A DNA stretch of 64,000 nucleotides from an uncultured Ectothiorhodospiraceae bacterium (GTDB lineage Bacteria; Pseudomonadota; Gammaproteobacteria; XJ16; Halofilaceae), in contig CAZVFN010000001.1 of NCBI GenBank assembly GCA_964626335.1, positions 11,482-75,481 of the forward strand, given 5' to 3'. This document shows positions 5,229-21,855 of the stretch, piece by piece. The position numbers were made by a program, and so were the translations under genes. Numbering within the stretch: position 1 is the first letter of the stretch; each line of letters begins with the position of its first letter. The notes beneath the pieces were generated by a model. It did no database searches. It was not told where the DNA came from and worked only from the letters and a program-made list of their open reading frames with translations.

Positions 5229-5237
5229 GGTGAGCCG

Positions 5238-6104: not shown

Positions 6105-6106
6105 CC

Positions 6107-7081
6107 ATGGAACTCGCCGGGCTGCTCGGCTACTTCTTCTACTTCCTGTCGATGGCCACGATCTACGCCGTGCTCGCGCTCGGCCTGAACATCCAGTGGG
6201 GCTACACCGGCCAGCTCAACATCGGCGTGGCCGCGTTCTTCGCGGTGGGCGCCTACACCAGCGCCATCGCCACCAGCCCGGCCAGCGCGGACCACCTCGG
6301 GGGCTTCGCCCTGCCCTTCCTGGTCGGGCTGGTGCTGGCCATGGTCATCGCCGGCATTGTGGCCCTCGCGGTCGGGCTGATCACCCTCAACCTGCGCTCC
6401 GACTACCTGGCGATCGCCACCATCGGCATCGCCGAGATCGTGCGTCTGTTCCTCAAGAACGAGGCCTGGCTGACCAACGGGGTGCGCGGCATGTCGTCGA
6501 TCCCGGGGCCATTCGAGGGCATCGCGGGCGACGGCGAGGCCATGGCCTACCTGCTGGCGCTGCTGGCCCTGGCGGGGGGGGTGTACTGGACCTGCCAGCG
6601 GCTGTTCCGCTCGCCCTGGGCGCGCGTGCTGCGCGCCATCCGCGCGAACGAGGACGCGGTCCTGGCGGCGGGCAAGAACGTGCTGCGCTTCCGGGTCGAG
6701 GCGTTCGTGCTCGGCTCCATGTTCATGGGCCTCGGTGGGGCTCTCTACGCGCACTTCGTGGGCTTCATCAGCCCGGGTGCGTTCGACCCGATGTTCGCCA
6801 CGTTCGTCGTCTGGGTGATGCTGATCGCCGGCGGGAGCGGCAACAACCGCGGCGCCCTGCTGGGCGCCCTGGTCATCTGGGGGGTGTGGACCATGAGCGA
6901 GTCGATGGTCGGGGGCCTGATCGACATCGGCCTGCTGCCCGACCAGCTCAAGACCCAGGCCTCGGCGCTGCGCATCTTCGTGATCGGGCTGCTGCTGGAG
7001 ATCATCCTGCTGACGCGACCCCAGGGCCTGCTGCCGGAACGCCCGCCGCGGGCCATCGACCTGGCGCGCGAGCGCGACTGA
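6107..7081 (+). CDS. livM: ABC transporter permease (LivM family)
   Basis: In-frame tail of ORF 5621..7081. Start set at ATG 6107 (MELAGLLGYFFYFLS), 3 nt after the livH stop. Polytopic, with LNIQWGYTGQLNIG and SDYLAIATIG motifs. Confidence 0.8.
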   Translation: MELAGLLGYFFYFLSMATIYAVLALGLNIQWGYTGQLNIGVAAFFAVGAYTSAIATSPASADHLGGFALPFLVGLVLAMVIAGIVALAVGLITLNLRSDYLAIATIGIAEIVRLFLKNEAWLTNGVRGMSSIPGPFEGIAGDGEAMAYLLALLALAGGVYWTCQRLFRSPWARVLRAIRANEDAVLAAGKNVLRFRVEAFVLGSMFMGLGGALYAHFVGFISPGAFDPMFATFVVWVMLIAGGSGNNRGALLGALVIWGVWTMSESMVGGLIDIGLLPDQLKTQASALRIFVIGLLLEIILLTRPQGLLPERPPRAIDLARERD

Positions 7082-7217
7082 GCCCGGCCCGGTCGTCGCC
7101 CCGGCACCTCGGCACACCCCGGCCGCCCCGCTCCCCGGGACCACCCGGCGCCTCGCCCCCCGCCCCGGCATGCGAACGCGGCGGCACCTGCACGGCGAGA
7201 CCGCGGGGCGGCGCGGC

Positions 7218-8582
7218 TCAGAAGGCCGGCTGGATCGCCTTCATGCTCGCGCGCACCTTGTCCGGGGCGTGCCCGTACGGCGCGGCGAGCGCGTCGAACA
7301 GCCGATCGAGCTGGTCGTTCGCACGTTGCAGCGCATCGCCCTCGAGTGCGCCCTGCTGCGACAGCGTGTCGACCAGGCCCGCCAGCGCCATGGCGGCCTG
7401 GTCCGACCAGCCGCGGTCGGCGTAGCCGCTGGCCGCGCCGGCCGCCGCGATCCGCCGGGCGATGCCCTCGACCGCGGCCGTGTCGATCGGCGTGCCGGCG
7501 AGGCGCCGCTCCGCCTCGCGCGCCAGCGACAGCAGCCGCTCGGCGGCCTGTTCCACCGCCGGCACGCCGCTGCCCTGCGACCGGTGCAGCGCCTTCAACG
7601 CGTCGATCCAGCGGTTGCGCAGTTCCGGGGCGAGCTCGGCGAGCACATAGCCGAGCATGCGGAAGGTCGCGTCCTCGAACGGCACGGTGCCAGGCCCCTG
7701 GTCGACGATCGGGCGCGCGACCCAGCTCGTGTCGCCCAGTCCGTGGTGACAGCTGCGGCAATCGAAGTAGTACAGCTCGGGGAAGAGCCCGCCCCGCGCC
7801 AGGTCGTCGCGCACCTGCCGGACCTTGGTGCGCGCGGCCACGGCCTGCCCGATCGCCCAGGTCTCGGCGGCGGAGGCCGCCGTCTTGCGTTGCCGATAAT
7901 CGGCGTCGACGCGGTGATGCCGGGGCCGGATGCGGCTGAACGTGTCCGCCTCGAACAACAGCGACGGGTGGCCCGCGGCCATGATCCGGTGCGTCATGGG
8001 CGACGCCGGGTGGCTGTAGTGGCAGGACATGCACAGGCGCGTGCGCTCGACCGGTCGGTCCGTGGGATAGAGGCCATTCGCGACGTTGTCCGCGTGCGTC
8101 ACCCCGCTGTTGGTGTGCGTCTCGATCCAGTCCTCCGCTCCGCCGTGACAGGCCTCGCAGCCGACGCCGTCGCTCACCTGGAAGCGCCTGCCACGGCGCT
8201 CCTCGGGCACGTTGTCGGTGTGGCAATCCAGGCAGGTGTCGGCCGCCGTCGCGGCCCCCAGGCCCAGCCGATCCGCGATCCGCTGCGATTCATCCGTGCG
8301 CAGCACGGCGTAGGCCTTGGAGTGGGGATCCTTGCGGTGCCAGGTCAGGAACTCGTTCTGCAGCACGTCGGTACTGTCGGACGCCCGCCCGGCGCCGTGG
8401 CAGGTGCTGCCGGCGCAGGTGGCCACGCCGAGGTGCTTGCTGTCGCCGAGGCGCGGCAGGGGGGGATCGTCCTGCGCCGGCGCCATGCCGGCCACCCCCA
8501 GCAGCAGGGCCGCGCCGGCAGCTGCGCGCCGGCGCGCGAGCGGATTGCCTCGGTACACGGTCCTGCCGTAGTGTTGCCACAT
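7218..8582 (-). CDS. Secreted multihaem cytochrome c (five sites: one CX4CH and four CXXCH) with a haem-free helical C-terminal half
   Basis: GGAGAAGGAA lies upstream of ATG 8582. Signal-like N-terminus RRRAAAGAALLLGVAGMAPAQ. Haem sites CAGSTCH, CLDCH, CEACH, CMSCH, CRSCH. Divergent from the 8786 gene. Confidence 0.8.
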   Translation of the reverse strand: MWQHYGRTVYRGNPLARRRAAAGAALLLGVAGMAPAQDDPPLPRLGDSKHLGVATCAGSTCHGAGRASDSTDVLQNEFLTWHRKDPHSKAYAVLRTDESQRIADRLGLGAATAADTCLDCHTDNVPEERRGRRFQVSDGVGCEACHGGAEDWIETHTNSGVTHADNVANGLYPTDRPVERTRLCMSCHYSHPASPMTHRIMAAGHPSLLFEADTFSRIRPRHHRVDADYRQRKTAASAAETWAIGQAVAARTKVRQVRDDLARGGLFPELYYFDCRSCHHGLGDTSWVARPIVDQGPGTVPFEDATFRMLGYVLAELAPELRNRWIDALKALHRSQGSGVPAVEQAAERLLSLAREAERRLAGTPIDTAAVEGIARRIAAAGAASGYADRGWSDQAAMALAGLVDTLSQQGALEGDALQRANDQLDRLFDALAAPYGHAPDKVRASMKAIQPAF

Positions 8583-8785
8583 GGTGGGTTCCTTCTCCGG
8601 GGACTTCGCCGCAAGCTAAAGGGTCGGACCGGGTTCGAGCGTAGCGGCTCGCGGCGTTCTTTCCCAGTCCCCGGCGATCACATCGCGCCATGCGCGGTCG
8701 CCGATCGCCGGGTGATGCGGCCCGAACAAGGGGCCCGGCACTCCGCCGCCGCGCGGGTGTACCGGGTCGAGGGGGAACAATCGGC

Positions 8786-11218
8786 ATGGACCGTTACCCG
8801 GTTGCGATCGTGGGATCCGGCCCGGCCGGGCTGAGTGCAGCCTGCCGGGCCGCGGAGCGGGGCGTCGAGCACATCCTGCTCGAGGGTGCCGACCACTACG
8901 CCCACACGATCTACCGCTACCAGAAGGGCAAGCACGTGATGGCGGAGCCCAACGTGCTGCCGCTGCGCGCACCGATCCCGTTCGATGCCGGCCGGCGCGA
9001 GGAGATCCTCGAGGGCTGGGCATCCGGCGCCGGGGAGAAGGGCGCGAATACCCGCTTCAACGCCTCCGTCAAGGGCATCACGGGTGAGCGCGGCGACTTC
9101 CGCCTGACGCTCGCCGACGGCGCGGAGATCGCGGCCGAGCACGTCGTCCTGGCGATCGGCGTCCAGGGCAACCCGCGCACCCTGGGCCGCCCGGGCGAGG
9201 ACCTGCCCTTCGTCCAGTACCAGCTCGACGATCCCGGGGCCTACAGCGACGAGACGATCGTGGTCGTCGGCGCCGGCGATGCGGCGATCGAGAACGCGCT
9301 CGGCCTCGTCGAGCAGAACCGCGTGATCAGCGTCAATACGCGCGACGAGTTCACGCGCGCCAAGGACGCCAACAACCAGGCCATCCTGCAGGCGATCGAG
9401 AGTGAGTCGACGCCCATGGAGTGCTTCTACAACAGCACCGTGGACCGGGTCGATGCCCTCGAGGACGACAGCGGGTTCGCCGGCCAGATCACGCTCGACA
9501 CCGCCGAGGGCAAGGCCGAGATCAAGTGCCACCGGGTGATCGCCCGCATTGGCGCCATCCCTCCGCGCCGGTTCGTCGAGTCCTGCGGCGTCACGTTCCC
9601 CAACGACGACCCGAACTCCGTCCCGGAGGTCTCCAGCCAGTACGAGTCGAATGTCTCCGGGCTCTACATCATCGGCGCCCTCGCCGGCTATCCGCTGATC
9701 AAGCAGGCCATGAACCAGGGCTACGAGGTCGTCGAGTACATCCTCGGCCACGAAGTCGAGCCCGCCGACACGCCGCTGCTGCGCGACAAGTTCGCCGCCA
9801 TACCCGGTGGCGACGACGTCCCCGCGACGCTCGCACTGATCCAGGAGCGCGTGCCGATGCTCGCGCCGATCACGCAGCTGCAGCTGCGGGAGTTCCTGCT
9901 CGACAGCGACATCCACGCCCCCGCCGAGGGTGACACGATCTTCCGGTACAAGGACTACACCAACTCCATCTACTCGATCCTGCAGGGCGAGGTGCACGTC
10001 CACCCGGGCGATCCGAACGACCCGAAGACACCGCGCGCGGCGATCACTCTCACCCAGGGCCAGTTCTTCGGCGAGATGAGCCTGATCTCCGGGCGCCGGC
10101 GCTCGGCGACCGTGACCGCGGGCCGCGACTGCATCGTCATCGAGAGCTCGCGCCGGTCGCTGCTGACGCTGATGTACTCGGTCGAGGGCGTGCGCCGGGT
10201 GGTCGAGGAGTCCTTCCTGCTGCGCGCCATCCAGTCGCAGATCGCGCCCGGCTGCAGCGCCGAGGACCTGGGCGAGCTGGTGCGCACGGCGACGATCGAG
10301 AAGTACGCGGCCGGCGACGAGATCTTCCACGAGGGCGACGCCGGCGACTGCCTGCAGCTCATCCGCCGGGGCTCGGTGACGGTCTCGCGCCAGATCGGTG
10401 GGCGCGAGGTGGTGCTGGCGTACGTCCCGGCGGGCCAGTACGTCGGGGAGATGGCACTGGTCTCGGACGCGCCGCGTACGGCGACCGTGCGCGCCGCCGT
10501 CGCGACGGAGACGGTGCGCCTCGACGGCGACGCCTTCAAGCGCCTGCTCGAGGAGCACCCGGACGTGCGCAAGCGCGTCCAGCAGGTCTACAAGAACCGG
10601 CTGACCAGCGACATGGACCGCGGCCAGCAGCCCGAGGCCGGCGACATCATCTCGTTCCTGGTGGAGCAGGGCCTGGGCGAGGCCACCGACGTGCTGCTGA
10701 TCGACGAGTCGCTGTGCATCCGCTGCGATTACTGCGAGAGCGCCTGCGCCGATACCCACGGCGGTGTGTCGCGGCTCGACCGCGAGGCCGGCCCGACGTT
10801 CGCCCATGTGCACGTCCCGACCTCCTGCCGTCACTGCGAGCACCCGCACTGCATGAAGGACTGCCCGCCCGACGCGATCCACCGCAATCCCAACGGCGAG
10901 GTGTACATCGACGACACCTGCATCGGCTGTGGCAACTGCGAGAAGAACTGCCCCTACGGCGTGATCCAGATGGGCGTGGAGACCCGCCGCGAGCCCAGCC
11001 TGTGGGCGTGGCTGCTGACGGGGCTGGGCCCCGAGCCGGGCTCCGAGCTCAAGCCGAAGAAGAAGGAAAGCGACCAGAAGAAGGCGGTCAAGTGCGATAT
11101 GTGCAAGGATCTGCCGGGCGGCCCCGCCTGCGTGCGCGCCTGCCCGACCGGCGCGGCCCTGCGCATGAGCCCCGAGGCCTTCTTCGAGATGACGGAGAAC
11201 ACGTCGACGCGTGACTAG
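8786..11218 (+). CDS. Cytoplasmic fusion protein: FAD/NAD(P)-binding oxidoreductase, two cyclic-nucleotide-binding domains and a poly-ferredoxin (4Fe-4S) domain
   Basis: ORF 8690..11218. Start set at ATG 8786 (MDRYPVAIVGSGPAGLS), with GAGGGGGA upstream. Dinucleotide folds VAIVGSGPAG and IVVVGAGDAAIENA. cNMP cassettes FFGEMSLISGRRRSATV and YVGEMALVSDAPRTATV. Fe-S motifs CIRCDYCESAC, CRHCEHPHCMKDCP, CIGCGNCEKNCP, CDMCKD...CVRACP. Confidence 0.85.
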   Translation: MDRYPVAIVGSGPAGLSAACRAAERGVEHILLEGADHYAHTIYRYQKGKHVMAEPNVLPLRAPIPFDAGRREEILEGWASGAGEKGANTRFNASVKGITGERGDFRLTLADGAEIAAEHVVLAIGVQGNPRTLGRPGEDLPFVQYQLDDPGAYSDETIVVVGAGDAAIENALGLVEQNRVISVNTRDEFTRAKDANNQAILQAIESESTPMECFYNSTVDRVDALEDDSGFAGQITLDTAEGKAEIKCHRVIARIGAIPPRRFVESCGVTFPNDDPNSVPEVSSQYESNVSGLYIIGALAGYPLIKQAMNQGYEVVEYILGHEVEPADTPLLRDKFAAIPGGDDVPATLALIQERVPMLAPITQLQLREFLLDSDIHAPAEGDTIFRYKDYTNSIYSILQGEVHVHPGDPNDPKTPRAAITLTQGQFFGEMSLISGRRRSATVTAGRDCIVIESSRRSLLTLMYSVEGVRRVVEESFLLRAIQSQIAPGCSAEDLGELVRTATIEKYAAGDEIFHEGDAGDCLQLIRRGSVTVSRQIGGREVVLAYVPAGQYVGEMALVSDAPRTATVRAAVATETVRLDGDAFKRLLEEHPDVRKRVQQVYKNRLTSDMDRGQQPEAGDIISFLVEQGLGEATDVLLIDESLCIRCDYCESACADTHGGVSRLDREAGPTFAHVHVPTSCRHCEHPHCMKDCPPDAIHRNPNGEVYIDDTCIGCGNCEKNCPYGVIQMGVETRREPSLWAWLLTGLGPEPGSELKPKKKESDQKKAVKCDMCKDLPGGPACVRACPTGAALRMSPEAFFEMTENTSTRD

Positions 11219-11232
11219 GAGCCTGTCCGGGG
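11213..11232 (+). repeat. Solo copy of the motif CTAGGAGCCTGTCCGGG, overlapping the TAG stop of the 8786 gene
   Basis: The same 17-mer forms the left terminal repeat of the element at 39501. A diverged copy (CTAGGCGCCTGTCCG) is at 22014. No matching right end is seen downstream of this copy. Confidence 0.5.
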
Positions 11233-11426
11233 ACGGCATTCCAGGGCGCTGCGCGGGGAACCGGGTCCGCGGCGGGCGCGCGCTGCGCCGGGCTGCGCGC
11301 GGGGGAGTCGGATGACAGCGCCGCTGCACGCGTCGTGCGGCGCCGAAAGAGACCGGCCCACCGCGGCCGGCGGAGAACGAGCCGGGCGCAACCCGGCCAG
11401 AGGGAGCACCGGATGACCGCAGGTCC

Positions 11427-12365
11427 ATGCACGCCTCGTTCCTGACCTACGAGCGCTTCCGCCACCTCAAGCTCGCCCTGGCGCTCGCGCTCGCGGCGAT
11501 CGTGGCCTATGCATGGCACGACCCGGTCGGCGAGCCCAACGGCGGCACCTGGCTCGGCTACACCCTGGGGGGACTCGGGGCGGCGCTGATCCTGCTGCTG
11601 CTGTGGTACGGCGTGCGCAAGCGCCGTTTCCGGTCGCGCATGGGCACCGTCCGCGGCTGGCTGTCGGCGCACGTCTACCTCGGGCTCGTGCTGGTGGTGA
11701 TCGCGACCCTGCACACCGGCTTCGAATTCGGCTGGAACATCCACACGCTCGCCTACGCGCTGATGATCGCGGTGATCGTCAGCGGCATCTACGGCGTCTA
11801 CGCCTACCGCCGCTATCCCAACCTGATGACGGGTAACCGCACCGGCGTCGGTCCCCAGGCGATGCTCGACGAGATCGGCTCGCTCGAGCAGCAGGCCGTC
11901 GAGCTCGCCGACAGCATCGACGACCCGACCCACCAGGTCGTACTGCGCTCGATCCGCAACAACACCATCGGCGGCGGCGTGCGCGACCAGCTGCGCGGCG
12001 GACGCCCGAAGCAGGCGCGCCAGGAGGAAGACCGCGCGGAGGAGTTCCTCGAACAGAAGAACAGGACGCTGGTCGCCGACCTGGAGAAGATCAAGGCGCA
12101 GGAAGCCGACCGCATCATGCGGGCCGAGTCGACCATGCAGTTCGTCGCCGGCCATCTGGCGGCGGCCGAGCCGGGCCAGCAGGTGGAGCGCATCCGCCGC
12201 CTCATGGATCTCCTGTCGCGGCGCCGCGCCCTGGTGCGCCGGCTCAACCAGGACATCCAGCACCGCGCGCTGCTCCAGATCTGGCTGTACCTGCACGTGC
12301 CGCTTTCGCTCGGGCTGCTGGCAGCCCTCGTGGCGCACGTCGTCGCCGTGTTCACCTACTGGTAG
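11427..12365 (+). CDS. Five-TM membrane protein with two H-x13-H helices (candidate di-haem b transmembrane electron carrier) and a long charged coiled-coil insert
   Basis: TM3 reads SAH-VYLGLVLVVIATL-H and the last TM reads LH-VPLSLGLLAALVA-H, each with exactly 13 residues between the histidines. About 150 aa of charged helical sequence separates TM4 from TM5. Weak SD. The stop is 6 nt before the next gene. Confidence 0.6.
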   Translation: MHASFLTYERFRHLKLALALALAAIVAYAWHDPVGEPNGGTWLGYTLGGLGAALILLLLWYGVRKRRFRSRMGTVRGWLSAHVYLGLVLVVIATLHTGFEFGWNIHTLAYALMIAVIVSGIYGVYAYRRYPNLMTGNRTGVGPQAMLDEIGSLEQQAVELADSIDDPTHQVVLRSIRNNTIGGGVRDQLRGGRPKQARQEEDRAEEFLEQKNRTLVADLEKIKAQEADRIMRAESTMQFVAGHLAAAEPGQQVERIRRLMDLLSRRRALVRRLNQDIQHRALLQIWLYLHVPLSLGLLAALVAHVVAVFTYW

Positions 12366-12371
12366 GCCGCC

Positions 12372-14132
12372 ATGCGCGTTCTCGTTCGCCACATTACGCG
12401 CAGGTCGCAGACCGGCCTCGGCCACACCGACAAGACGGTCGCGGGCGACAGCCTCACCATTGGTCGCGGCGCGGACGCGGATGTCTTCCTCTCCGACCTG
12501 CACGTCGCCCTGCACCACGCCGTGCTGCGGCGTGTGTCGAGCGGCAGGTTCAGCGTTCAGGCGCGCACGCCGAGTGGCATCAAGATCAATGGCCGCACGC
12601 TGCAGACCGGCATCGTGCGCGCCGGCGACCGCATCGGCGTCGGCCTCAGCACCCTGCGCCTCGAGCGCGGCGACCAGGAGCACGACGTCGTCCTCGAGGT
12701 CGACGAGGCGCGGACCCGTGGCGGCGAAAAGGCGGACTCCGGGCCGACGACGCTGCGCGCGGCCGGTCTCGGCCGCCGGCGCTGGGCCTGGGCCGCCTTC
12801 CTGGTGGTGCTGGCGATCGGCCTGGGCCTGCCGCTGGCCGAGATATTCGGCGAGCGCGATGGCCTCGCCCTCGACGGCGGCAGCGCCGACGCTGCGGCGC
12901 GCGACGGCGGCGGGATCACGCGACACGTCGACTGGCTGCTGGCGGGCAGCGACCGCATCTGGGAAACCGGGCCGATGAGCAAGCCCCACCGCTCCTTCGG
13001 CGCCGATTGCGGCCAGTGCCACCGGCAGCCGTTCCAGCGCGTGAGCGACGCTGCCTGCCTCGACTGCCACGAGAACCAGCCGCACCACGCCGACGACACC
13101 GGCCTGATGCGGAGCGCCGGGCTCTCCGCTCGGCGCTGCGCGAGCTGCCACGTCGAGCACAGCGGCACCGAGGCCCTGCGCGCCGCCGACGCCGACATCT
13201 GCTCCGACTGCCACTCGGCGCCCGAGAGCAACATGCCGGGCAGCGACCTGCAGGCGGTTTCCGGCTTCGCCGGCGACCGGCACCCGCAGTTCCGCGTGCG
13301 CCTGGTGTCGTTCAACGAGGGGGGCGAGCCCGCCTGGAAGCGCGTGCCCATGGACGGGCCCGTGAGCGAGCAAAGCGGGCTCGCATTCCCCCACGACGCC
13401 CATCTGGCCGCGGACGGCGTAGAGGGTCCACAGGGCAAGGAACAGCTCGCGTGCGGCGACTGCCATCGCCCCGGGCCGACGGGCGTGACGATGCAGCCGG
13501 TGCGTTTCGAGCGCGACTGCCAGCGCTGCCACCAGCTGAACTTCGAGCCCGAGGACCCGGACCGCCAGCTACCCCACGGCCGCCCCGGGCTGGTGGTGTC
13601 GATGCTCGAGGAGTACTACTCGCGGGTCGCGCTCGCGGGCGGCTTCGACCGCGCGGACGCCGAGGTCGACCCCCCGGACGTGGTCGAGCGCGAGCGCACC
13701 GCCTCGAGCGAGCTCGAGGAGGGCGGGCGGCGTGCCGCGCTCGCCTGGGCGCGGGAACAGGCCGGCGTGGTCGCCAGCGAGATGTTCGACTACCGCGCCT
13801 GCAGCACGTGCCACCAGGTCACGCGCACGCCCGATGACCCGGCCGGCTGGCGGGTGCACCCCGTGGCGCTGACGCAGCAGTGGTTCCCGCAGGCGGATTT
13901 CACGCACGCGCGCCACGAGCAGATGGCCTGCAACGACTGCCACGAGGCCGGCGGCTCCGAGGCGGCGAGCGACGTGCTGATGCCCGGGATCGCGACCTGC
14001 CAGGAATGCCACGGCGGTTCCGGGGCGAGCGACCGGATCGCTTCCGGCTGCGTCGATTGCCACGGCTTCCACACGGCGACCGATCTGCGGATGGGGGCGA
14101 ACGATGAGGGGATGGCCCATGCGCAGCGCTAG
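12372..14132 (+). CDS. FHA domain - single TM - periplasmic decahaem cytochrome c fusion
   Basis: N-terminal FHA-like sequence (LTIGRGADADVFLSDLHVALHHAVL...IKINGRTL...GDRIGVG). TM helix WAWAAFLVVLAIGLGLPLA. Ten CXXCH sites follow: CGQCH, CLDCH, CASCH, CSDCH, CGDCH, CQRCH, CSTCH, CNDCH, CQECH, CVDCH. Confidence 0.8.
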   Translation: MRVLVRHITRRSQTGLGHTDKTVAGDSLTIGRGADADVFLSDLHVALHHAVLRRVSSGRFSVQARTPSGIKINGRTLQTGIVRAGDRIGVGLSTLRLERGDQEHDVVLEVDEARTRGGEKADSGPTTLRAAGLGRRRWAWAAFLVVLAIGLGLPLAEIFGERDGLALDGGSADAAARDGGGITRHVDWLLAGSDRIWETGPMSKPHRSFGADCGQCHRQPFQRVSDAACLDCHENQPHHADDTGLMRSAGLSARRCASCHVEHSGTEALRAADADICSDCHSAPESNMPGSDLQAVSGFAGDRHPQFRVRLVSFNEGGEPAWKRVPMDGPVSEQSGLAFPHDAHLAADGVEGPQGKEQLACGDCHRPGPTGVTMQPVRFERDCQRCHQLNFEPEDPDRQLPHGRPGLVVSMLEEYYSRVALAGGFDRADAEVDPPDVVERERTASSELEEGGRRAALAWAREQAGVVASEMFDYRACSTCHQVTRTPDDPAGWRVHPVALTQQWFPQADFTHARHEQMACNDCHEAGGSEAASDVLMPGIATCQECHGGSGASDRIASGCVDCHGFHTATDLRMGANDEGMAHAQR

Positions 14133-16182
14133 CCGGCTACTGCTCGCGACTGCCTGCCTGGCCGGCCTGCTCGCCGCCTGCGGCGGCGGCTCGCGCAGCG
14201 GCGGCTCCGATGCCGGCTCGAGCCAGGACACCGACTGCACCGGCTTTTGCCAGGACGCCGCGACCCGGCTCACGGCGAGCGATGTGCGCACCGTGATCGC
14301 CCAGGCGGCCGCAGAGGCGGACGCCCGCGGCGAGCCCGCGACCATCGCCGTCGTCGATCGCGTCGGCAACGTCCTGGGCCTGTTCCGCATGAACGGGGCC
14401 GACGCCAGCGTCGAGATCACGTCCACGCCCGGCCAGAGCGACGGCGTCGACGGGGGCCTGGAGGGCGTCAACATCATCCCCGACACGCTGGCGGCGATCG
14501 CCAAGGCCGTGACCGGGGCCTACCTCTCGTCCGAGGGCCATGCGTTCACCACCCGCACGGCGAGCCAGATCGTGCAGGCCCACTTCAACCCGGGCGAGGA
14601 CTTCCAGCCCGGGGGCCCGCTGTTCGGCGTGCAGTTCAGCCAGCTGCCCTGCTCGGACCTGGCGACCCGCTTCGACGGCGCCGACCCGATCAATGCCGGT
14701 CCCCACCGCTCGCCGCTGGGCCTGTCCGCCGACGCGGGCGGCCTGCCGCTGTACAAGAACGGCACCCCCGTCGGCGGGATCGGCGTGATCGCCGACGACG
14801 TCTACGGCCTGTCGCCGAAGGAGCTGGGCGGCGACCAGCCAACGAGCGTCGACGAGCTCGCGGCGGTCGCCGGCAGTGCCGGCTTCGCCGCGCCCGCCGC
14901 CCGGCGCGGCAACCGCATCACGGTCGAGGGCAAGCTGCTGCGCTTCGCGGCGGCGCAGCCGGGCGACCTGCGAACGGAGGCGTCGAACGCCCCCGCCTTC
15001 GCCAGCCTGGCCGGCACGACCGCGGCGGTGCCCGGCTACACCGATGGCACGATCCGCGGCGGCACGGCCTTCTCCAAGCCGGAATCGGGCATCCGCGCGA
15101 GTACCCACGCGGCCTTCAGCGGCCAGGACGCATTCGTGCTCGTTGACGATGCCGACAACCCGCGGTTCCCGCCCACGGCGGGCAGCGCCCCCGGCGGCGG
15201 CAACGCGCTCACGCAGAACGAGGTGGAGACGCTCCTCTCGGAGGCCCTCGCGGTCGCCAACCGGAGCCGTGCGCAGATCCGCCGCCCGCTCGGCAGCCGG
15301 GCCCGCGTCACGGTTTCCGTGGTCGACACCGACGGCAATGTCCTCGGCATCGTGCGCGGCCGCGACGCGCCCGTGTTCGGCATCGACGTCTCGCTGCAGA
15401 AGGCCCGGACGGCCGCGTTCTTCTCCGGCAGCGACGCGGCCACCGAGCTGCGGGCCGTGCCCGACGCCGAGTATCTCGACGGCGGCCTGTCGAGCCTGCG
15501 CAACGAGCCGATCAGCCATTACATCGACGGCGACCCGGGCGACGAGCGCCAGACGGGCGTGCGCGCCTTCCTCGGCGAGCCCAGCGCCCTCACCGGCGGT
15601 GTTGCCTTCGCCGACCGCTCCGGCGGCAACCTGTCGCGGCCGTTCTTCCCCGACGGCATCGACGGCAACCGCCACGGGCCCTTCAGCAAGCCGGGCGGCA
15701 TCGAGCCGCCCACGGAGTGGAGCCCGTTCTCCGTGGGCCTGCAGCTCGACCTGGTCTACAACGCCCTGATCCGCCACGTCGGCTTCATCGCCGGAGTGGC
15801 CGGCAGCGACGTGCCGATGAACTGCACGGGCATCCGCGGCCTGACCAACTCCGGTGGTGCCGGCCCCCTGACCCAGGCCGACACGATCGACACGGTGCGC
15901 AACGGCATCCAGATCTTCCCCGGCAGCGTGCCGATCTACCGCGGCAGCACGCTGGTCGGCGGCATCGGCGTCTCCGGCGACGGCATCGAACAGGACGACC
16001 TGATCGCGTTCCTGGGGCTGCACAACGCGGGCGAGAAGCTGGGCACGATCGACAATGCGCCGACGGCGATTCGGGCCGACAAGCTGAGTCCGGTCGACTT
16101 CGGCGTGAATTTGCGCTACGTGCAGTGCCCGCAGAAACCGTTCCTCGACAGCGATGAGCAGACCGTCTGTGAAGGCAAGTAA
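14119..16182 (+). CDS. Lipoprotein with two GlcG/HbpS-like (DUF336, haem-binding-type) domains
   Basis: ORF 14104..16182. Preferred start is ATG 14119 (MRSASRLLLATACLAGLLAAC, lipobox LAAC). DUF336-like segments ATIAVVDRVGNVLGLFRM, VTVSVVDTDGNVLGIVRGRDAPVFGIDVSLQKARTAAFF and PIYRGSTLVGGIGVSGDGIEQDDLIA. The start overlaps the upstream stop. Confidence 0.6.
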   Translation: MRSASRLLLATACLAGLLAACGGGSRSGGSDAGSSQDTDCTGFCQDAATRLTASDVRTVIAQAAAEADARGEPATIAVVDRVGNVLGLFRMNGADASVEITSTPGQSDGVDGGLEGVNIIPDTLAAIAKAVTGAYLSSEGHAFTTRTASQIVQAHFNPGEDFQPGGPLFGVQFSQLPCSDLATRFDGADPINAGPHRSPLGLSADAGGLPLYKNGTPVGGIGVIADDVYGLSPKELGGDQPTSVDELAAVAGSAGFAAPAARRGNRITVEGKLLRFAAAQPGDLRTEASNAPAFASLAGTTAAVPGYTDGTIRGGTAFSKPESGIRASTHAAFSGQDAFVLVDDADNPRFPPTAGSAPGGGNALTQNEVETLLSEALAVANRSRAQIRRPLGSRARVTVSVVDTDGNVLGIVRGRDAPVFGIDVSLQKARTAAFFSGSDAATELRAVPDAEYLDGGLSSLRNEPISHYIDGDPGDERQTGVRAFLGEPSALTGGVAFADRSGGNLSRPFFPDGIDGNRHGPFSKPGGIEPPTEWSPFSVGLQLDLVYNALIRHVGFIAGVAGSDVPMNCTGIRGLTNSGGAGPLTQADTIDTVRNGIQIFPGSVPIYRGSTLVGGIGVSGDGIEQDDLIAFLGLHNAGEKLGTIDNAPTAIRADKLSPVDFGVNLRYVQCPQKPFLDSDEQTVCEGK

Positions 16183-18034
16183 GCGCACAGTCATCGGCCT
16201 TGGCCTCGCCGCCGTCGTCCTCGCGCCGTTCGCCGCGGCCGCGGACGACGTCCGGCGCCGCCCGGGCAGCGACCGCGACCGGGTCATCGAGCGCGAGATC
16301 CCGGGCGAGCGCGACCGCGAGCGCCCGGGCAGCGATCGCCCCCGGGAGCGCGACAAGGTCGAGCAATCCCCCGATCGAGCGCAGCAGCCGCGCGAGCAGC
16401 CCGACCCCAACAGGGCCGCCGGGATCGGGCGCGTCGAGCCGGCTTCGGCGCCGGACGAGCCCGGGCGCTTGACCCTGCCCGTGCCCGATCGGTGGCGTAT
16501 CGTCAATTCGCTCGGGCTGATCGATCAGCGCTGGTGGGACCCCTACGATCAGAACACGTACAAGGCGGACAAGCCGATCCACGACGACTGGTTCCTCAAC
16601 GTCGACTTCACCTCGGACACCGTCGTCGAGCCCAGGCAGTTCCCCGTCCCCGTCTCCCCGCAGGGCACGGCACGCAGCAACGAGCTCGACCTGGTCGGCA
16701 ACGGCGAGCAGATGGTCTACGCCCAGACCTTCATCGCCGGTCTCGTCTACTACAAGGGCAACACCGTATTCAAGCCGCCCGACTGGGAATACCGGCTGAC
16801 GCTGGCCGGCCAGTACAACCACGTCGAGTCCGAGCAGGCGCGCCTGCTGCGGGCGGACCCGGACCGCGGTACCGACCGCTCCGACCAGCACCTCGGCGTC
16901 CAGGAGCTGTTCGTCGACAAGCACCTCAGAGATGTCTCGCCGCGCTATGACTTCGACTCGGTGCGCTTCGGCATCCAGCCGTTCAACGCCGATTTCCGCG
17001 GCTTCCTGTTCCAGGACGAGCCCTTCGGGGTACGCCTGTTCGGCACGCGCGACAACAACATCTTCCAGTACAACCTGGCCTGGTTCCGCCGCATCGAGAA
17101 GGACACCAACAGCGGCCTCAACGACCTCGCCGAGGGCCTGCGCGACGACGACGTCTTCGTCGCCAACCTGTTCTGGCAGGACTTCCCCGTGCTCGGCTTC
17201 GACAGCCAGGCCACGATCCTGCACAACCGCAATGAGGAAGGCGACGAGAGCGCGCACTTCAACCAGAACAACTTCATCGAGCGCCCGGCCTCCATCGGCC
17301 TGGAGAAGCCGCGCAACTACGACGTGACGTATGTCGGCCTCTCGGGCGACGGCCACTTCGGACGCACGAACTTCACCGGATCGGTGTATTACGCCCATGG
17401 CGAGCAGGACCGCGGCGTCTTCGTCGAGGAGCCCACCGACATCCGCGCCGGCTTCGCCGCCGGCGAGCTCTCCTGGGACTTCGACTGGACGCGCCTGCGC
17501 GTCTCCGGCCTCTATGCCAGCGGCGACGACGACCCGTTCGACGACGTCTCCAACGGCTTCGACGCCGTGTTCGAGAACCCGCTGTTCGCGGGCGCCGACA
17601 CCAGCTTCTGGATCCGCCAGCCCGTGCCGCTGATCGGCGGCGGTCGGGTCGCGCTGTCCGGCCGCAACGGGATACTCAACTCGCTGCGCAGCTCCAAGGA
17701 GGAAGGCCAGTCCAACTTCGACAATCCGGGCACCGTCCTGCTCGGCATCGGCACCGACCACGACGTCACGCCGCAGCTGCGTGTCTCGACCAACGTCAAC
17801 CAGCTGTGGTTCGACACGACCGAGACCGTGGAGGTCGCGCGCCAGCAGACGAACGTCGATGACGAGATCGGCACCGACATATCGGTCTCGGCAATCTACC
17901 GGCCGCTGTTCACGCAGAACATCGTCTTCCGCGGGTCGGCCGCCGTTCTCGAGCCGGGTGATGGCTACGAGCAACTGTTTGGCACCGACGACGAGGCCTA
18001 CTCCGTGCTCTTCAACCTGGTGTTGCGGTACTGA
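16154..18034 (+). CDS. Outer-membrane beta-barrel protein (porin-like) with an N-terminal Arg/Asp/Glu/Pro-rich repeat
   Basis: Signal peptide KRTVIGLGLAAVVLAPFAAAA. Repeat RPGSDRDR...RPGSDRPRERD. Long run of alternating beta-strand-like sequence. The C-terminus, ...VLFNLVLRY, ends in an aromatic residue. Overlaps the upstream gene by 29 nt and the downstream gene by 1 nt. Confidence 0.65.
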   Translation: MSRPSVKASKRTVIGLGLAAVVLAPFAAAADDVRRRPGSDRDRVIEREIPGERDRERPGSDRPRERDKVEQSPDRAQQPREQPDPNRAAGIGRVEPASAPDEPGRLTLPVPDRWRIVNSLGLIDQRWWDPYDQNTYKADKPIHDDWFLNVDFTSDTVVEPRQFPVPVSPQGTARSNELDLVGNGEQMVYAQTFIAGLVYYKGNTVFKPPDWEYRLTLAGQYNHVESEQARLLRADPDRGTDRSDQHLGVQELFVDKHLRDVSPRYDFDSVRFGIQPFNADFRGFLFQDEPFGVRLFGTRDNNIFQYNLAWFRRIEKDTNSGLNDLAEGLRDDDVFVANLFWQDFPVLGFDSQATILHNRNEEGDESAHFNQNNFIERPASIGLEKPRNYDVTYVGLSGDGHFGRTNFTGSVYYAHGEQDRGVFVEEPTDIRAGFAAGELSWDFDWTRLRVSGLYASGDDDPFDDVSNGFDAVFENPLFAGADTSFWIRQPVPLIGGGRVALSGRNGILNSLRSSKEEGQSNFDNPGTVLLGIGTDHDVTPQLRVSTNVNQLWFDTTETVEVARQQTNVDDEIGTDISVSAIYRPLFTQNIVFRGSAAVLEPGDGYEQLFGTDDEAYSVLFNLVLRY

Positions 18035-21000
18035 TGACAGCGCAAGCGAACCGAAACACGCCGATGAGCGAACCCGTCGCCCCCGGGCGCACGCCGAATC
18101 GCGCCCGGGCGTGGCTCCACGCCGGTGCCCTCGTGCTCGCGGCGACGCTGGCCTGGGGACCCGGCGACCGCGCGCAGGCGGCCTCCGCGCTCGGCGAGCC
18201 GCAGGACGTCGATTACGACCCCGCCCCGCCCGCGCCGAAGAACCAGCTGCCGGGCCAGGCCGAGGACAAGAGCGACGGCTGCCAGTCGTGCCACACCGAG
18301 ACCGACCAGAAGGACATGCACGACAACCCGGCGGTCGTTCTCGGCTGTACCGACTGCCACGGCGGCGATCACGACGTCATGCGCCCGGCCGACAGCGAAC
18401 AGGGCGATCCCGCCTACCAGAACGCGATGAAGGAAGCGCACGTCAAGCCGCTGTACCCGGGGGCGTGGAATTGGCCGAACAGCGCGACGCCGAAACGCAC
18501 GTACACGCTGCTGAACGAGGAATCGCCGGAATTCGTCCGCTTCGTGAACCCGGGCGACTACCGCGTCGCGGAGAAGGCGTGCGGCAACTGCCACGGCGAC
18601 ATCGTCGCCGCCGCCCAGCGCAGCCTGATGGCGACCTCGGCGATGTTCTGGGGCGGGGCGGCGTACAACAACGGCATCCTGCCCAACAAGCGCTACATCC
18701 TGGGCGAGGCCTACACCGACGAGGGCAAGCCCGCCAGGATCGAGAACCCGGTCGAGGTCACGGAGCCGATGAAGCGCGCCGGTGTCCGCCCCGAGCTGTG
18801 GCCCCTGCCCGCCTGGGAGACCGTGCCGCCGGCCGACGTCTTCCGCGTGTTCGAGCGTGGCGGGCGCAACAAGGAGAACCTGTTCCCCGAGACCGGCCTG
18901 CCGAACCCCGAATTCGACATCCAGGTGCTCGAGGAGCCGGGCCGCCCGGACATCCGCCAGTCGAACCGGGGCCCGGGCACCGGGCAGCGGATCGCCGTGC
19001 CGGTGCTCAACATGACCAAGACGCGGCTGAACGACCCGACCATGTGGTTCATGGGCACCAACGACAACCCGGGCGACTTCCGCTCCTCGGGCTGCTCGTC
19101 GTGCCACGTCGTCTACGCCAACGACCGCAAGGAAAAGTCCGCCGGCCAGTACGCCGAGCACGGCCACTGGGGCAAGAGCATCACCGCGGACCCGACCATC
19201 CCGAAGGATGAGAAGGGCCACCCCCTCGAACACAAGTTCACCGAGCAGATCCCGACCAGCCAGTGCATGATCTGCCACATGCACCAGCCGAATTCGTTCG
19301 TGAACTCGTTCCTCGGCTACACCATGTGGGACTACGAGTCCGATGCACCGCGCATGTGGCCCGAGGAGCAGCAATACCCGAGCTCCGAGGAGCAGCGCCG
19401 GATCAACGCCCGCAACCCCGAGGGCGCGGCCGTGCGCGGCAAGTGGGGCGACGTCGACTTCCTCTCCGGCGTATCGGAGCTGAACGACCAAATGGAGCAC
19501 ACGCAGTTCGCCGACTACCACGGCCACGGCTGGAACTTCCGCGCCGTGTTCAAGAAAGACCGCGAGGGCAAGCTGCTCGACGCGAAGGGCGACGTGGTGT
19601 CCCACGACGACCCGGAGAAGTTCGACAAGGCCGTGCACATGTCGTCGATCCACGCCGACAAGGGCATGCACTGCGTCGACTGCCACTACAGCCAGGACAC
19701 GCACGGCAACGGCCACATCTACGGTGAGGTCGCGCAGGCCATCGAGATCGAGTGCTCCGACTGCCACGGCACTGCCGAGCGCTACCCGGACCTGCTGACC
19801 AGCGGCCCGGCCGCGCCGCCGGGCGGGCGCGACATGTCGACGATGCGCACGCCCGACGGTCGCCAGCGCTTCGTCTGGCGTAACGGCGACCTGTACCAGC
19901 GCTCGCAAATGGACCCCGAAAAGGAGTGGCAGGTCAGCCTGGTCAAGGACACGGTGACGCAGGGCAGCGGCAGCTACAACGAGCGCGCCGCACGCTCCAA
20001 GCTGATGTCGTCGGACGAGCACAAGCAGGACTGGGGCCGAGACGTGGCGAAGGAGAACCGCGCGCACAAGGAATCGGAGATGATGTGCACCACCTGCCAC
20101 ACGTCCTGGACGACGAGCTGCGCGGGCTGCCATCTGCCGATCGAGGCGAACTGGAAGACCAAGCGCCATCACTACGAAGGCGGGGCCACGCGCAACTTCG
20201 CCACCTACAACCCCCAGGTGGTGCGCGACCAGATGTTCCAGCTGGGCCTGCACGGGCCCGCCAAGGGCAACCGCGTCGCACCGGTGCGCTCGTCCTCTGC
20301 GCTGGTGCTGTCGTCGCGCGACGCCGAGCGCGGGCTGATCTACACCCAGCAGCCGCCGATCTCGTCGGCCGGTTTCTCGTCGCAGGCGTTCGCGCCTCAC
20401 TTCGCGCACACCGTGCGCAAGACCGAGACGAAGTCGTGCGAGGACTGCCATCTCTCCGAGGAAGGCGACAACAACGCGATCATGTCGCAGTTGTTGCTCC
20501 AGGGGACCGATTTCGTCGATTTCGTCGGCTACAACGCCTGGGTCGGCGAGGCCGGCGGCCTGTCCGCCGTGCGCGTCAGCGAGTGGGAGGAGCCGCAGGC
20601 CGTGATCGGCAGCTACCTCCACGAGTACGCCTACCCCGACTGGTATGCGCAGCACAACAAGCGCGATCGCCAGCTGGACCAGGCCTATGACCACGGTGCC
20701 GGCGGCGAGGTCGGCTGCCTGCAACTGCGCGGCGAGTATGTCTACGCCGCCGAAGGGCCCGGGGGCTTCCAGGTCTACGACGCACAGGCGATCGGCAACA
20801 AGAACTTCTCGCAGCGCCTGATCACGCAGCCGTTCTCGCCGCTGGGCCACGACACCCAGGTCGACACGAGGAACGCGACCTGCGTCGCCCTGCCGACCAC
20901 CCAGCCGATCCACCCGGACCGCAATCAGGGCGAGCTGATGCGCGAGACCAACATGGAGCAGCCGTTCCACCCGGTCTACGACTACGCGGGCATCACCGAC

Positions 21001-21855
21001 AGCGAGGAGGGGCTGATCCTCGTCGACGTCAACACGCTCGCCGACGGCGAGCCGCGCAACAACTTCCTCGAGCGCGCGGTGACGTTCAACCCGAACGGCG
21101 TGCTCGACGGTGCGCGCGACATCACGTTCGGTGGGCACTTTGCCTACGTGGCCACCGATGACGAGCTCGTGGTGGTCGACCTGGATCAGCCCGGGCAGCC
21201 GCGGATCGCCGAGCGCATCCGCCTGCAGGATCCGCGTGCGAGTTTCGTCCAGTTCCGCTACCTGTTCGTCACCGATGCCACGGGTCTGCGGGTGATCGAC
21301 ATCACCCATCCGCAGGAGGCCGAGCTGGTTGCGGGCGCACGGGTCGAGCTGGCCGATGCGCAGGGCCTGCACGTGGCACGCACCTACGCCTACATCGCCA
21401 ACGGCGGGCAGGGTCTCGCGATCGTCGACGTGACGCGGCCGGAGGCGCCGGAGCTCTTCCAGCGCTTCGACGGCGGCGGGCGGATCGGCGACGCCCGCGA
21501 CGTCGTCGCCGGGGCCAGCTACGCCTCGGTGTTCGCCTACGTCGCGGACGGGCGCAACGGCCTGCAGGTCGTGCAGCTCACCTCGCCGGAGCGCACGCCC
21601 GGTTTCTACGGCTACAGTCCGCCGCCCGACCCGAAGTGGATCGCCGGTTACCCGACCGAGCGGCCGGCGCTGGCGCTGTCCGAGCCGCTGGAGCGCGACC
21701 GGGCAGTCGACGAGACCGGCCACCAGATCGCCGTGTTCGGGCGCATCGGCTCGCGACCGTTTGACTGGGAAGAGATGAAGCAGCTCTACCTCGACGACCA
21801 GGGCAAACCCTGGTACGTCAGCGATCCCCCGGGGGCCACCGCGGCCGGCAACTAG
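18034..21855 (+). CDS. Large secreted decahaem cytochrome c fused to a C-terminal LVIVD-repeat beta-propeller
   Basis: Signal-like ARAWLHAGALVLAATLAWGPGDRAQAAS. Ten CXXCH sites are spread over about 850 aa: CQSCH, CTDCH, CGNCH, CSSCH, CMICH, CVDCH, CSDCH, CTTCH, CAGCH, CEDCH. LVIVD-type repeats follow: GLILVDV, ELVVVDL, GLRVIDI, GLAIVDV, GLQVVQL. The ATG overlaps the upstream TGA. Confidence 0.8.
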   Translation: MTAQANRNTPMSEPVAPGRTPNRARAWLHAGALVLAATLAWGPGDRAQAASALGEPQDVDYDPAPPAPKNQLPGQAEDKSDGCQSCHTETDQKDMHDNPAVVLGCTDCHGGDHDVMRPADSEQGDPAYQNAMKEAHVKPLYPGAWNWPNSATPKRTYTLLNEESPEFVRFVNPGDYRVAEKACGNCHGDIVAAAQRSLMATSAMFWGGAAYNNGILPNKRYILGEAYTDEGKPARIENPVEVTEPMKRAGVRPELWPLPAWETVPPADVFRVFERGGRNKENLFPETGLPNPEFDIQVLEEPGRPDIRQSNRGPGTGQRIAVPVLNMTKTRLNDPTMWFMGTNDNPGDFRSSGCSSCHVVYANDRKEKSAGQYAEHGHWGKSITADPTIPKDEKGHPLEHKFTEQIPTSQCMICHMHQPNSFVNSFLGYTMWDYESDAPRMWPEEQQYPSSEEQRRINARNPEGAAVRGKWGDVDFLSGVSELNDQMEHTQFADYHGHGWNFRAVFKKDREGKLLDAKGDVVSHDDPEKFDKAVHMSSIHADKGMHCVDCHYSQDTHGNGHIYGEVAQAIEIECSDCHGTAERYPDLLTSGPAAPPGGRDMSTMRTPDGRQRFVWRNGDLYQRSQMDPEKEWQVSLVKDTVTQGSGSYNERAARSKLMSSDEHKQDWGRDVAKENRAHKESEMMCTTCHTSWTTSCAGCHLPIEANWKTKRHHYEGGATRNFATYNPQVVRDQMFQLGLHGPAKGNRVAPVRSSSALVLSSRDAERGLIYTQQPPISSAGFSSQAFAPHFAHTVRKTETKSCEDCHLSEEGDNNAIMSQLLLQGTDFVDFVGYNAWVGEAGGLSAVRVSEWEEPQAVIGSYLHEYAYPDWYAQHNKRDRQLDQAYDHGAGGEVGCLQLRGEYVYAAEGPGGFQVYDAQAIGNKNFSQRLITQPFSPLGHDTQVDTRNATCVALPTTQPIHPDRNQGELMRETNMEQPFHPVYDYAGITDSEEGLILVDVNTLADGEPRNNFLERAVTFNPNGVLDGARDITFGGHFAYVATDDELVVVDLDQPGQPRIAERIRLQDPRASFVQFRYLFVTDATGLRVIDITHPQEAELVAGARVELADAQGLHVARTYAYIANGGQGLAIVDVTRPEAPELFQRFDGGGRIGDARDVVAGASYASVFAYVADGRNGLQVVQLTSPERTPGFYGYSPPPDPKWIAGYPTERPALALSEPLERDRAVDETGHQIAVFGRIGSRPFDWEEMKQLYLDDQGKPWYVSDPPGATAAGN

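Follow-up and report, generated by a model that had tools for sequence, protein, structure and literature searches.

An 810-residue flavo-iron-sulfur protein with tandem cyclic-nucleotide-binding domains, proposed as the electron-input subunit of an inner-membrane electron-export module

Introduction

Why should one bacterial protein combine a flavin domain, two cyclic-nucleotide-binding (CNB) domains and a polyferredoxin, and why should its gene stand beside genes for a membrane protein and multihaem cytochromes? The question is raised by gene g1 (8786..11218, + strand) in a 64,000-nucleotide stretch of contig CAZVFN010000001.1 (assembly GCA_964626335.1) from an uncultured Ectothiorhodospiraceae bacterium, hereafter the window. 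To our knowledge, the passage of electrons from cytoplasmic metabolism to outer-membrane cytochrome conduits has been worked out in few model organisms, always by way of quinol oxidases such as CymA, ImcH and CbcL.

We describe here the domains of the g1 protein, its partners g2 (a membrane protein) and g3 (a decahaem cytochrome), and the genes around them (g0 and g4 to g6). The composition of g1 and its partnership with g2 and g3 we hold with high confidence. As to its function, there is in our judgement a somewhat better than even chance that g1 forms the cytoplasmic entry point for electrons in an inner-membrane export module of three parts.

Domain architecture of g1

The open reading frame at 8690..11218 (+) has a third-position GC content (GC3) of 0.93, in a window of 70% GC, and is for that reason taken as coding. 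From the ATG at 8786 it gives 810 residues, identical to a database protein (P0001) that likewise has 810. The start residue is shared by 16 relatives in the alignment, and a Shine-Dalgarno sequence, GAGGGGGA, lies about 10 nt 5' of the ATG. Length match, common start and ribosome-binding site together indicate that ATG 8786 is the right start. A sequence scan found neither a transmembrane (TM) segment nor a signal peptide. The first-pass annotation, made from the letters of the DNA, had described a single cytoplasmic polypeptide of flavin, two cyclic-nucleotide and ferredoxin parts; start, length and Pfam domains agree with the single chain, and the scan agrees with the location.

The N-terminal part (residues 4-325; 8795..9760, +) is a thioredoxin reductase (TrxR)-like flavin domain with two dinucleotide-binding folds. 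Pfam places Pyr_redox_3 on residues 8-297 (E 8e-29, score 101.2 against a cut-off of 30) and Pyr_redox_2 on residues 5-312 (E 3e-25, 89.8 against 26.1). The two dinucleotide motifs are G10-x-G12-x-x-G15 (GSGPAG) and G162-x-G164-x-x-A167 (GAGDAA); G10, G12 and G15 are invariant among the relatives, and G162, G164 and D165 are invariant or nearly so. The best Foldseek matches are YpdA/Bdr, TrxR-like ferredoxin-NADP+ reductases (FNRs) and TrxRs, with E values of 5e-23 to 1e-19 and structures 2zbw, 3ab1, 5ygq and 3lzw among them; a sequence search against the Protein Data Bank (PDB) returned 7a7b. Both folds had been recognized at first pass, and profile, motif and structural comparison now concur on them.

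Residues 1-340 contain no CxxC, nor any Cys that is invariant among the relatives aligned. The NCBIfam scores fall far below cut-off (TRX_reduct 58.9 against 343.45; YpdA 110.8 against 339.9). On these two grounds a true thioredoxin reductase, a YpdA or another disulfide reductase is ruled out for g1. The domain has its fold and motifs in common with TrxR-like FNRs (B. subtilis YumC, Chlorobaculum FNR) and YpdA/Bdr, without a CxxC, but it is only about 20% identical to them and is fused to CNB and Fe-S domains. In the absence of a redox disulfide, the precedent that remains by default is an FNR-like flavin domain, which would pass its electrons to the Fe-S domain.

The pyridine-nucleotide loop reads VNTRDEFTRAK in the window protein and N-R-(R/K/G)-x-x-F-x-R-A-K in the family consensus, which we take to recall the HRRxxxR NADPH motif of TrxR. 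Residue T185 (9338-9340) of the window protein recurs in its closest relative; among the close relatives 14 of 16 have Arg here, as do 27 of the 32 deep ones. The replacement of the first Arg of a putative NADPH 2'-phosphate loop may shift the donor preference. Because of this Thr, we write the donor as NAD(P)H.

Two CNB domains follow: A (residues 373-485; 9902..10240, +) and B (residues 486-615; 10241..10630, +), the second with a long C-helix that leads into the Fe-S domain. The Pfam family cNMP_binding (PF00027) matches in two stretches (E 1e-35, 122 bits against a cut-off of 27.5). Cassette A, FFGEMSLISGRRRSATV, is complete with E430, R439, S440 and A441; cassette B, YVGEMALVSDAPRTATV, with E555, R564, T565 and A566. 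The cassette Gly, Glu, Arg and Ala are invariant in 16 relatives at 60-91% identity, apart from A441, kept in 15 of the 16. The two complete cassettes reported at first pass are therefore canonical (G-E...R-S/T-A), and their Arg and Glu phosphate contacts are present and conserved in the close family. Among 32 deep representatives, R439 is kept in 19, R564 in 22 and E555 in 19.

The CNB tandem (residues 381-606) aligns with the regulatory subunits of protein kinase A (PKA) in the PDB sequence search; CNB-A and CNB-B of PKA have the same tandem layout with intact phosphate-binding cassettes. A precedent for cAMP allostery on a fused bacterial enzyme, as proposed here for g1, is the mycobacterial acetyltransferase Pat. 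Our literature searches returned no characterised redox enzyme gated by a CNB domain, and we know of none.

The C-terminal part (residues 637-800; 10694..11185, +) is a ferredoxin domain of the HycB/HydN/DmsB type, with Pfam matches over residues 640-800 to Fer4_11 (PF13247; 42.3 against a cut-off of 26.2) and Fer4_7. Its Cys residues form four motifs: C644/647/650/654, C681/684/689/693, C712/715/718/722 and C770/773/782/786. All 16 are invariant in 32 cluster representatives at 31-58% identity, so that four [4Fe-4S] sites are expected rather than three. The polyferredoxin of three to four clusters, of the DMSO-reductase beta-subunit type, that had been noticed at first pass is thereby settled at a predicted four. 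Residues 638-807 align end to end with residues 7-170 of HycB3 of the hydrogen-dependent CO2 reductase (7qv7_A, E 2e-19), and the domain matches HycB of formate hydrogenlyase (7z0s_B) over its whole length too, with the same four motifs and spacing; both are four-cluster wire subunits. All NCBIfam equivalogs (DmsB, HydN, NrfC, HybA and others) score far below cut-off (HydN 52.2 against 260, DmsB 56.7 against 214.1, and the AegA N-terminus too). HycB, HydN and DmsB are free subunits of molybdo- or hydrogenase complexes, whereas in g1 the domain is the C-terminal part of a flavoprotein.

The predicted model of g1 has a mean pLDDT (predicted local distance difference test) of 70.7, a moderate value, with about 80-90 over the flavin domain and about 40-50 over the Fe-S domain.

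Distribution and conserved neighbourhood

The architecture of g1 is abundant in databases. A word-index search returned 7135 proteins at E<=1e-10, and the best 120 of them are nearly all of about 800 residues, with the g1 architecture and 60-91% identity. An exhaustive search of 50%-identity representatives gave 905 at E<=1e-30, including about 45 full-length clusters down to 31% identity. Relatives are encoded in at least 593 GTDB species genomes, mostly of Gammaproteobacteria (Lysobacterales, Nevskiales, Salinisphaerales, Steroidobacterales), with others in Burkholderiales and Alphaproteobacteria. Nevskia soli, Solimonas terrae, Fontimonas thermophila, Pseudomarimonas arenosa and a Zavarzinia sp. 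are carriers that can be cultivated. Their source annotations say only 'cyclic nucleotide-binding domain-containing protein' or 'thioredoxin reductase'. An early database homologue is from 'uncultured bacterium W4-39b', on which we found no literature. One relative from a JGI metagenome (P0130, 1212 residues) has several hundred extra residues, in the form of repeated modules of about 100 residues before and within the CNB region.

Window neighbours were compared with 80 loci by tblastn, many of the absences being contig ends. Homologues of g2 are found in 60 of the 80 and of g3 in 63. The order g1-g2-g3-g4-g5-g6 recurs in alpha-, beta- and gammaproteobacteria. Sixty-nine loci extend 1.3 kb or more beyond g1 on its downstream side and are informative: g2 is the next gene in 55 of them, and in another 10 the cluster is permuted to g3-g4-g5-g6-g0-g1. 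The linkage of g1 to its cytochrome genes thus extends to other genomes. The minimal triad g1-g2-g3 stands alone in a marine alphaproteobacterium (L080) and in Magnetococcus (L088).

The membrane protein g2, the decahaem protein g3 and natural fusions

The gene g2 (11427..12365, +) encodes a 312-residue inner-membrane protein with five TM helices, a putative di-haem b transmembrane wire. Its motifs, invariant in the family, are W78-x3-H82-x13-H96 on TM3, S119-G120-x-x-G123 on TM4 and W286-x3-H290-x13-H304 on TM5; both H-x13-H pairs are invariant in 56 and again in 32 sequences. The positive-inside rule assigns to the cytoplasm a helical insert of 160 residues between TM4 and TM5 (26 K/R), the loop at 60-76 (7 K/R) and the N-terminus. 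TM3 and TM5 run in the same direction, which allows a cytoplasmic-side haem at H82/H290 and a periplasmic-side haem at H96/H304. From this motif, g2 could hold two haems.

The partnership of g1 with this H-x13-H protein, proposed at first pass, is supported by adjacency in the 55 of 69 loci and by a natural fusion of the two in a single reading frame. The fusion (P0123, MEO5345780.1; 1110 residues) comes from a metagenome-assembled genome of Magnetococcus sp. YQC-9; residues 4-312 of g2 align to its residues 795-1110 with an E value of 1e-51. It lies inside a 44.5-kb contig, with a g3 homologue after it. In Oceanospirillum beijerinckii, too, the Fe-S protein and the membrane protein are annotated as one gene (PMC5566968).

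Two further relatives join g1 to FHA domains. In P0137 (1134 residues), two FHA domains precede g1 (Pfam FHA E 5e-28, in two stretches), in a cluster otherwise identical from g1 to g6; P0131 (970 residues) has an N-terminal extension that is FHA-like by sequence, with no Pfam FHA match. A short form of 476 residues, with two CNB domains and the Fe-S domain and no flavin, occurs in Gemmatimonadota and Latescibacterota (63 members); its gene has one for a cytochrome c' upstream and a g2 homologue (E 9e-22) downstream. These architectures argue that g1 meets the cytoplasmic N-terminus of g2 with its Fe-S end, and the fusions with FHA argue for a functional link of that domain to g1.

The window has its own FHA domain in g3 (12372..14132, +), a 586-residue protein with an N-terminal FHA domain, one TM helix (residues 141-159) and a decahaem c domain with ten CxxCH. 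From this succession, the FHA domain would be cytoplasmic and the haem domain periplasmic.

Three side observations concern the same genes. In g2, T135 is invariant within a cytoplasmic R-Y-P-x-L-M-T-x-N-R motif just after TM4; that it is a candidate phospho-threonine target of the FHA domains is pure speculation. The spacer between g1 and g2 (11219-11426) is unusually long, at 208 nt, and GC-rich; in other genomes it ranges from about 20 nt to more than 1 kb. It was considered as a regulatory RNA and rejected, since its fold is no better than that of shuffled sequences (z = 0.5) and it is unconserved in relatives at 82-94% protein identity. In one locus (L083, 5400-8113) the flavin-less 476-residue form stands between the cytochrome c' gene and the g2 homologue, downstream of GAF-histidine-kinase genes.

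Relation to known gene clusters and enzymes

The closest described gene cluster is PCC4, defined by He et al. in 2017. It combines a porin and a conserved protein of the inner membrane with periplasmic cytochromes of 4, 5 and 10 haems and with 'other redox-active proteins'; its subgroup II has an Fe-S gene (pfam13247) upstream of the one for the membrane protein (PMC5566968). The membrane-protein signature of PCC3 and PCC4 is a length of about 300 residues and five TM helices, of which TM3 and TM5 carry W-x3-H-x13-H and TM4 carries SGxxG (PMC5566968), as realized in g2 by W78/H82/H96, S119/G120/G123 and W286/H290/H304. The genes ptdABCDEFG were named by Elbon et al. in 2024, with a function that 'remains completely unknown' (10.1101/2023.11.21.568154). 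PCC4 and ptd appear to be the same cluster. In PCC4 subgroup II and in PtdE-PtdF-PtdG, an Fe-S/cyclic-nucleotide protein stands directly upstream of a membrane protein of about 300 residues, followed by a decahaem, as in g1-g2-g3; we equate the inner module of the window with PCC4/ptd by descriptions and synteny only. An electron-conduit role for clusters with such an inner module has been proposed independently in both papers (PMC5566968; 10.1101/2023.11.21.568154).

There are differences. The outer set of PCC4/ptd (a c552-like pentahaem, a tetrahaem and their porin) is absent from the window cluster, which has g4, g5 and g6 instead. PtdE is described with cyclic-nucleotide domains and 'two 4Fe-4S', and PtdC as a separate FAD/NAD(P) oxidoreductase, whereas g1 has all of these in one chain, with four clusters. 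Neither paper discusses NAD(P)H input, cyclic-nucleotide gating or an FHA link, and both leave the function unassigned. One locus (L022) bridges, from its gene content, the window inner module and the PCC4/ptd clusters: there g1-g2-g3 stand behind a 595-residue c552-like pentahaem, which matches the Thermochromatium c552 structure 5ze8, a 553-residue putative porin without a family match, and a tetrahaem. Membership of PCC3 was rejected, its periplasmic cytochromes having 21-27 haems against 10 in g3.

Among enzymes, the nearest logic is that of NADPH oxidases and ferric reductases (NOX/FRE) and of MsrQ-Fre: cytoplasmic NAD(P)H, flavin, two stacked b haems on His pairs of TM3 and TM5, and an acceptor on the trans side, as proposed here. 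Second-messenger gating occurs in part of the NOX family, with Ca2+ acting through EF-hands in NOX5/DUOX. In g1, however, the flavin domain is of the TrxR and not of the FNR type, and four Fe-S clusters are interposed; g1 and g2 are separate chains, rarely fused; and the proposed acceptor is a multihaem chain and not O2, an Fe-chelate or MsrP. Since g2 misses Ferric_reduct and has no structural match, and the flavin domain belongs to another fold class, we do not count g1-g2 as a NOX/FRE member.

Given the abundance of the architecture and the two earlier sightings of the cluster, the g1 cluster is not categorically new. The FHA link, the full set of seven genes g0-g6 and the PCC4/ptd descriptions go beyond what was noticed at first pass. 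We did not find in the searchable literature the one-chain form of flavin, two CNB domains and four clusters, the fusions that speak for a complex of g1, g2 and g3, the association with FHA, the outer module g4-g6, or the reading as a cyclic-nucleotide-gated, quinone-independent NAD(P)H outlet.

Outer genes of the cluster and other genes of the window

Downstream of g3, g4 (14104..16182, +) encodes a 692-residue lipoprotein made up of three HbpS-like (GlcG/DUF336) domains. In 47 of the 80 loci it keeps its place between the genes for the decahaem and the porin-like protein; it might bind haem or serve as a scaffold. Next comes g5 (16154..18034, +; homologues in 45 of 80 loci), a secreted protein of 626 residues and putative outer-membrane beta-barrel with a weak porin match and the C-terminus ...LVLRY. 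The last gene, g6 (18034..21855, +; also 45 of 80), encodes a secreted decahaem cytochrome of 1273 residues with a C-terminal LVIVD beta-propeller, a putative cell-surface component. It has ten CxxCH and 59-69% identity across classes; the literature searched holds no description of the combination of ten CxxCH with an LVIVD propeller.

On the other side, divergent from g1, g0 (7218..8582, - strand; 31 of 80 loci) encodes a 454-residue secreted c554-like cytochrome with four CxxCH and one CxxxxCH. The region between g0 and g1 has no CRP-type operator TGTGA-N6-TCACA; in the whole window 3 such sites occur where 11.9 are expected. Around g1, no sigma-70 promoter or terminator rose above chance, and no Rfam family was found over positions 7000-24500.

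A canonical metal-reduction set lies at 42036-49476, so that a quinol-linked route exists besides the g0-g6 cluster. It consists of an MtrC/OmcA-like protein (45302-48187, -), an MtrA-like decahaem (44216-45193, -), an MtrB/PioB porin (42036-44195, -; Pfam E 9e-151), a mono-haem cytochrome c (48069-48752, +) and a CymA/NapC-NirT quinol dehydrogenase (48865-49476, +). Two more genes for CNB proteins stand directly upstream of the Mtr genes, one for a stand-alone CNB protein of 163 residues (39801-40292, -) and one for a Crp-type regulator with CNB and HTH_Crp_2 domains (40925-41746, +). Their position hints that cyclic-nucleotide signalling is tied to extracellular electron transfer in this organism.

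Genes for cytochrome c maturation are split: ccmA/ccmB-like genes come right after g6 (22107-23734, +), and ccmC/ccmF/ccmH(CycH)-like genes adjoin the Mtr/CymA set (49590-55807, +). An Isp-type periplasmic [NiFe] hydrogenase is encoded at 24269-29191 (-) by genes for the small subunit, a 219-residue protein without family match, a CCG/Fer4 HdrD-like protein and the large subunit, with maturation genes (HycI, HypB, HypD, HypF, HypE-like) at 29579-37945. At 1820-3589 (-), a 589-residue fusion joins a thioredoxin-like [2Fe-2S] domain to a NuoF-type FMN/NADH module (HoxF / formate dehydrogenase beta type); it adjoins a branched-chain amino-acid ABC transporter (3751-7081).

Discussion

The arrangement of g1, g2 and g3 suggests a path for electrons. 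NAD(P)H would reduce the FAD of the TrxR-like domain of g1, which would act as a TrxR-type ferredoxin-NADP reductase, and the HycB-like wire at the C-terminus would conduct the electrons along its four [4Fe-4S] clusters. They would then pass to the cytoplasmic-side haem b of g2 (H82/H290), to its periplasmic-side haem (H96/H304) and on to the ten haems of g3, whose single helix anchors them to the membrane. The last stretch, to an acceptor outside the cell, would be the task of g0, of the porin-like g5 and of g6, the decahaem-propeller protein at the surface. Flow in this direction is downhill from -320 mV and follows the membrane potential, negative inside; inward flow would go against both with no coupling device seen. 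This is why we take the direction to be outward. Outward, NAD(P)H-driven transfer through g1-g2-g3 is on balance probable, by a modest measure.

Outward flow through a two-haem wire would conserve no energy. The system would then serve either as a respiration of low yield or as an outlet for reducing power under tight gating, and would bypass the quinone pool. An outlet that drains NAD(P)H with no energy in return would account for two regulatory inputs, the tandem CNB domains and FHA. The CNB pair, inserted after the flavin domain and ahead of the Fe-S wire, would put electron transfer under the control of cAMP or cGMP; in the obvious model, CNB helices moved by the nucleotide would set the distance or orientation between the flavin and the first cluster. 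FHA domains, on g3 here and on g1 in other lineages, would provide a second input, of a phospho-threonine type, for control or assembly. Gating of the g1 flux by a cyclic nucleotide, suggested at first pass as allosteric control, we put forward tentatively, at somewhat less than an even chance.

Several observations weigh against this scheme. The model of g1 is too weak over the Fe-S domain to give the geometry from flavin to cluster or from cluster to haem, and with Thr at the first Arg position of the NADPH loop, the donor of the window protein may be either NADH or NADPH. About one deep g1 lineage in three has another residue in place of the cassette Arg or Glu; gating would therefore not be family-wide, and is probably a trait of the window clade and many others rather than of all g1 lineages. 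An AlphaFold2 model of g2 (pLDDT 75.7) gave a best E value of 0.31 in Foldseek against the PDB, to helical sensor domains matching the insert, and a profile search against PDB sequences returned nothing. There is no Pfam match of g2 to Ferric_reduct (PF01794) at E<=0.01, and Ni_hydr_CYTB scores 23.5 against 30.1; a distant g2 homologue reaches 17 bits on PF01794. With family cut-offs missed and no significant structural or sequence relative, it is the His motif that argues for haem in g2. In 4 of the 69 informative loci, g1 has no g2 nearby. Our literature searches found no experiment on any member of the g1 family, and He et al. modelled the opposite direction for PCC4, from an extracellular donor to the quinone pool (PMC5566968).

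Assignment of g2 to the ferric-reductase-domain or cytochrome b561 families was rejected, structural and profile matches being absent and the likeness being one of motif.

The outward path might serve a periplasmic or surface reaction in place of mineral respiration: assimilatory reduction of ferric iron, reduction of a nitrogen oxide or peroxide by the c554-like or decahaem proteins, NOX-like superoxide production outside the cell or MsrQ-like periplasmic repair. The logic from NAD(P)H through flavin to two b haems is that of NOX, FRE and MsrQ, g0 resembles cytochrome c554, and the HbpS-like domains of g4 belong to a family whose annotation is haem binding or degradation. A canonical CymA-MtrCAB route for mineral reduction is already present in this genome, and a nitrogen-cycle role for ptd was raised by Elbon et al. 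(10.1101/2023.11.21.568154). The conserved porin-like g5 and the 1273-residue g6 point instead to a cell-surface route, and no recognisable catalytic site was found in any partner. We consider such a purpose unlikely.

Less likely still is inward flow, in which Fe(II), Mn(II), a cathode or another donor outside the cell would feed g2 and, from it, quinone, or through g1 NAD(P)+ or another cytoplasmic acceptor. In its favour, PCC4 occurs in Zetaproteobacteria and in Hyphomicrobium from Fe- or Mn-oxidising settings, and its flow was drawn from the donor to the quinone pool (PMC5566968). The window encodes a periplasmic [NiFe] hydrogenase, hence low-potential periplasmic electrons are available in the organism. 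Against it, on bioenergetic grounds, inward flow would oppose the inside-negative potential and have to reach -320 mV with no energy-coupling element; a quinone-reducing cytochrome b needs no cytoplasmic NAD(P)H-type flavoprotein fused or adjacent to it, as g1 is to g2; and most carriers are aerobic heterotrophs (Lysobacterales, Nevskiales, Burkholderiales).

That g1 is a sensor of cyclic nucleotide and of the NAD(P)H or redox state, regulating g2 and g3 (for example via FHA) without bulk flux, is very improbable. In favour of a sensor are the association of g1 with signalling domains of two kinds (CNB and FHA), the frequent occurrence of regulators among bacterial proteins fused to CNB domains, and the return of CRP and Pat in the NCBIfam search of g1. 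Against it, sixteen invariant Cys in a HycB-type four-cluster chain are typical of wires and not of sensors, the flavin-less short form retains the Fe-S wire beside g2, and the g1+g2 fusion puts this wire at the membrane protein.

Returning to outward flow from NAD(P)H, a fuller formulation can be given, to which we would attach rather less than an even chance. It is possible that g1-g2-g3 is a quinone-independent, second-messenger-gated NAD(P)H:extracellular-acceptor oxidoreductase, a bacterial counterpart of the NADPH oxidase. Its parts would be a flavoprotein of TrxR-like type, an Fe-S wire of four clusters, a di-haem membrane protein of a new type and a decahaem tethered to the membrane. 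In it, cAMP/cGMP and FHA/phospho-threonine signalling may switch the flow of cytoplasmic reducing power to the cell surface. Such an oxidoreductase might, with the same caution, be common in aerobic Proteobacteria from soil, freshwater and the sea that do not count as electroactive.

The inner-membrane proteins of PCC3, PCC4 and ptd have been 'hypothetical' since 2017. Should our reading of g1-g2-g3 hold, hundreds of species would have a direct route from NAD(P)H to the cell surface that bypasses the quinone pool. Switched by a cyclic nucleotide, it would be the first such redox enzyme, and the direction of flow assumed for PCC4 would have to be reinterpreted. The three genes would also offer a compact, regulatable module for wiring metabolism to electrodes.

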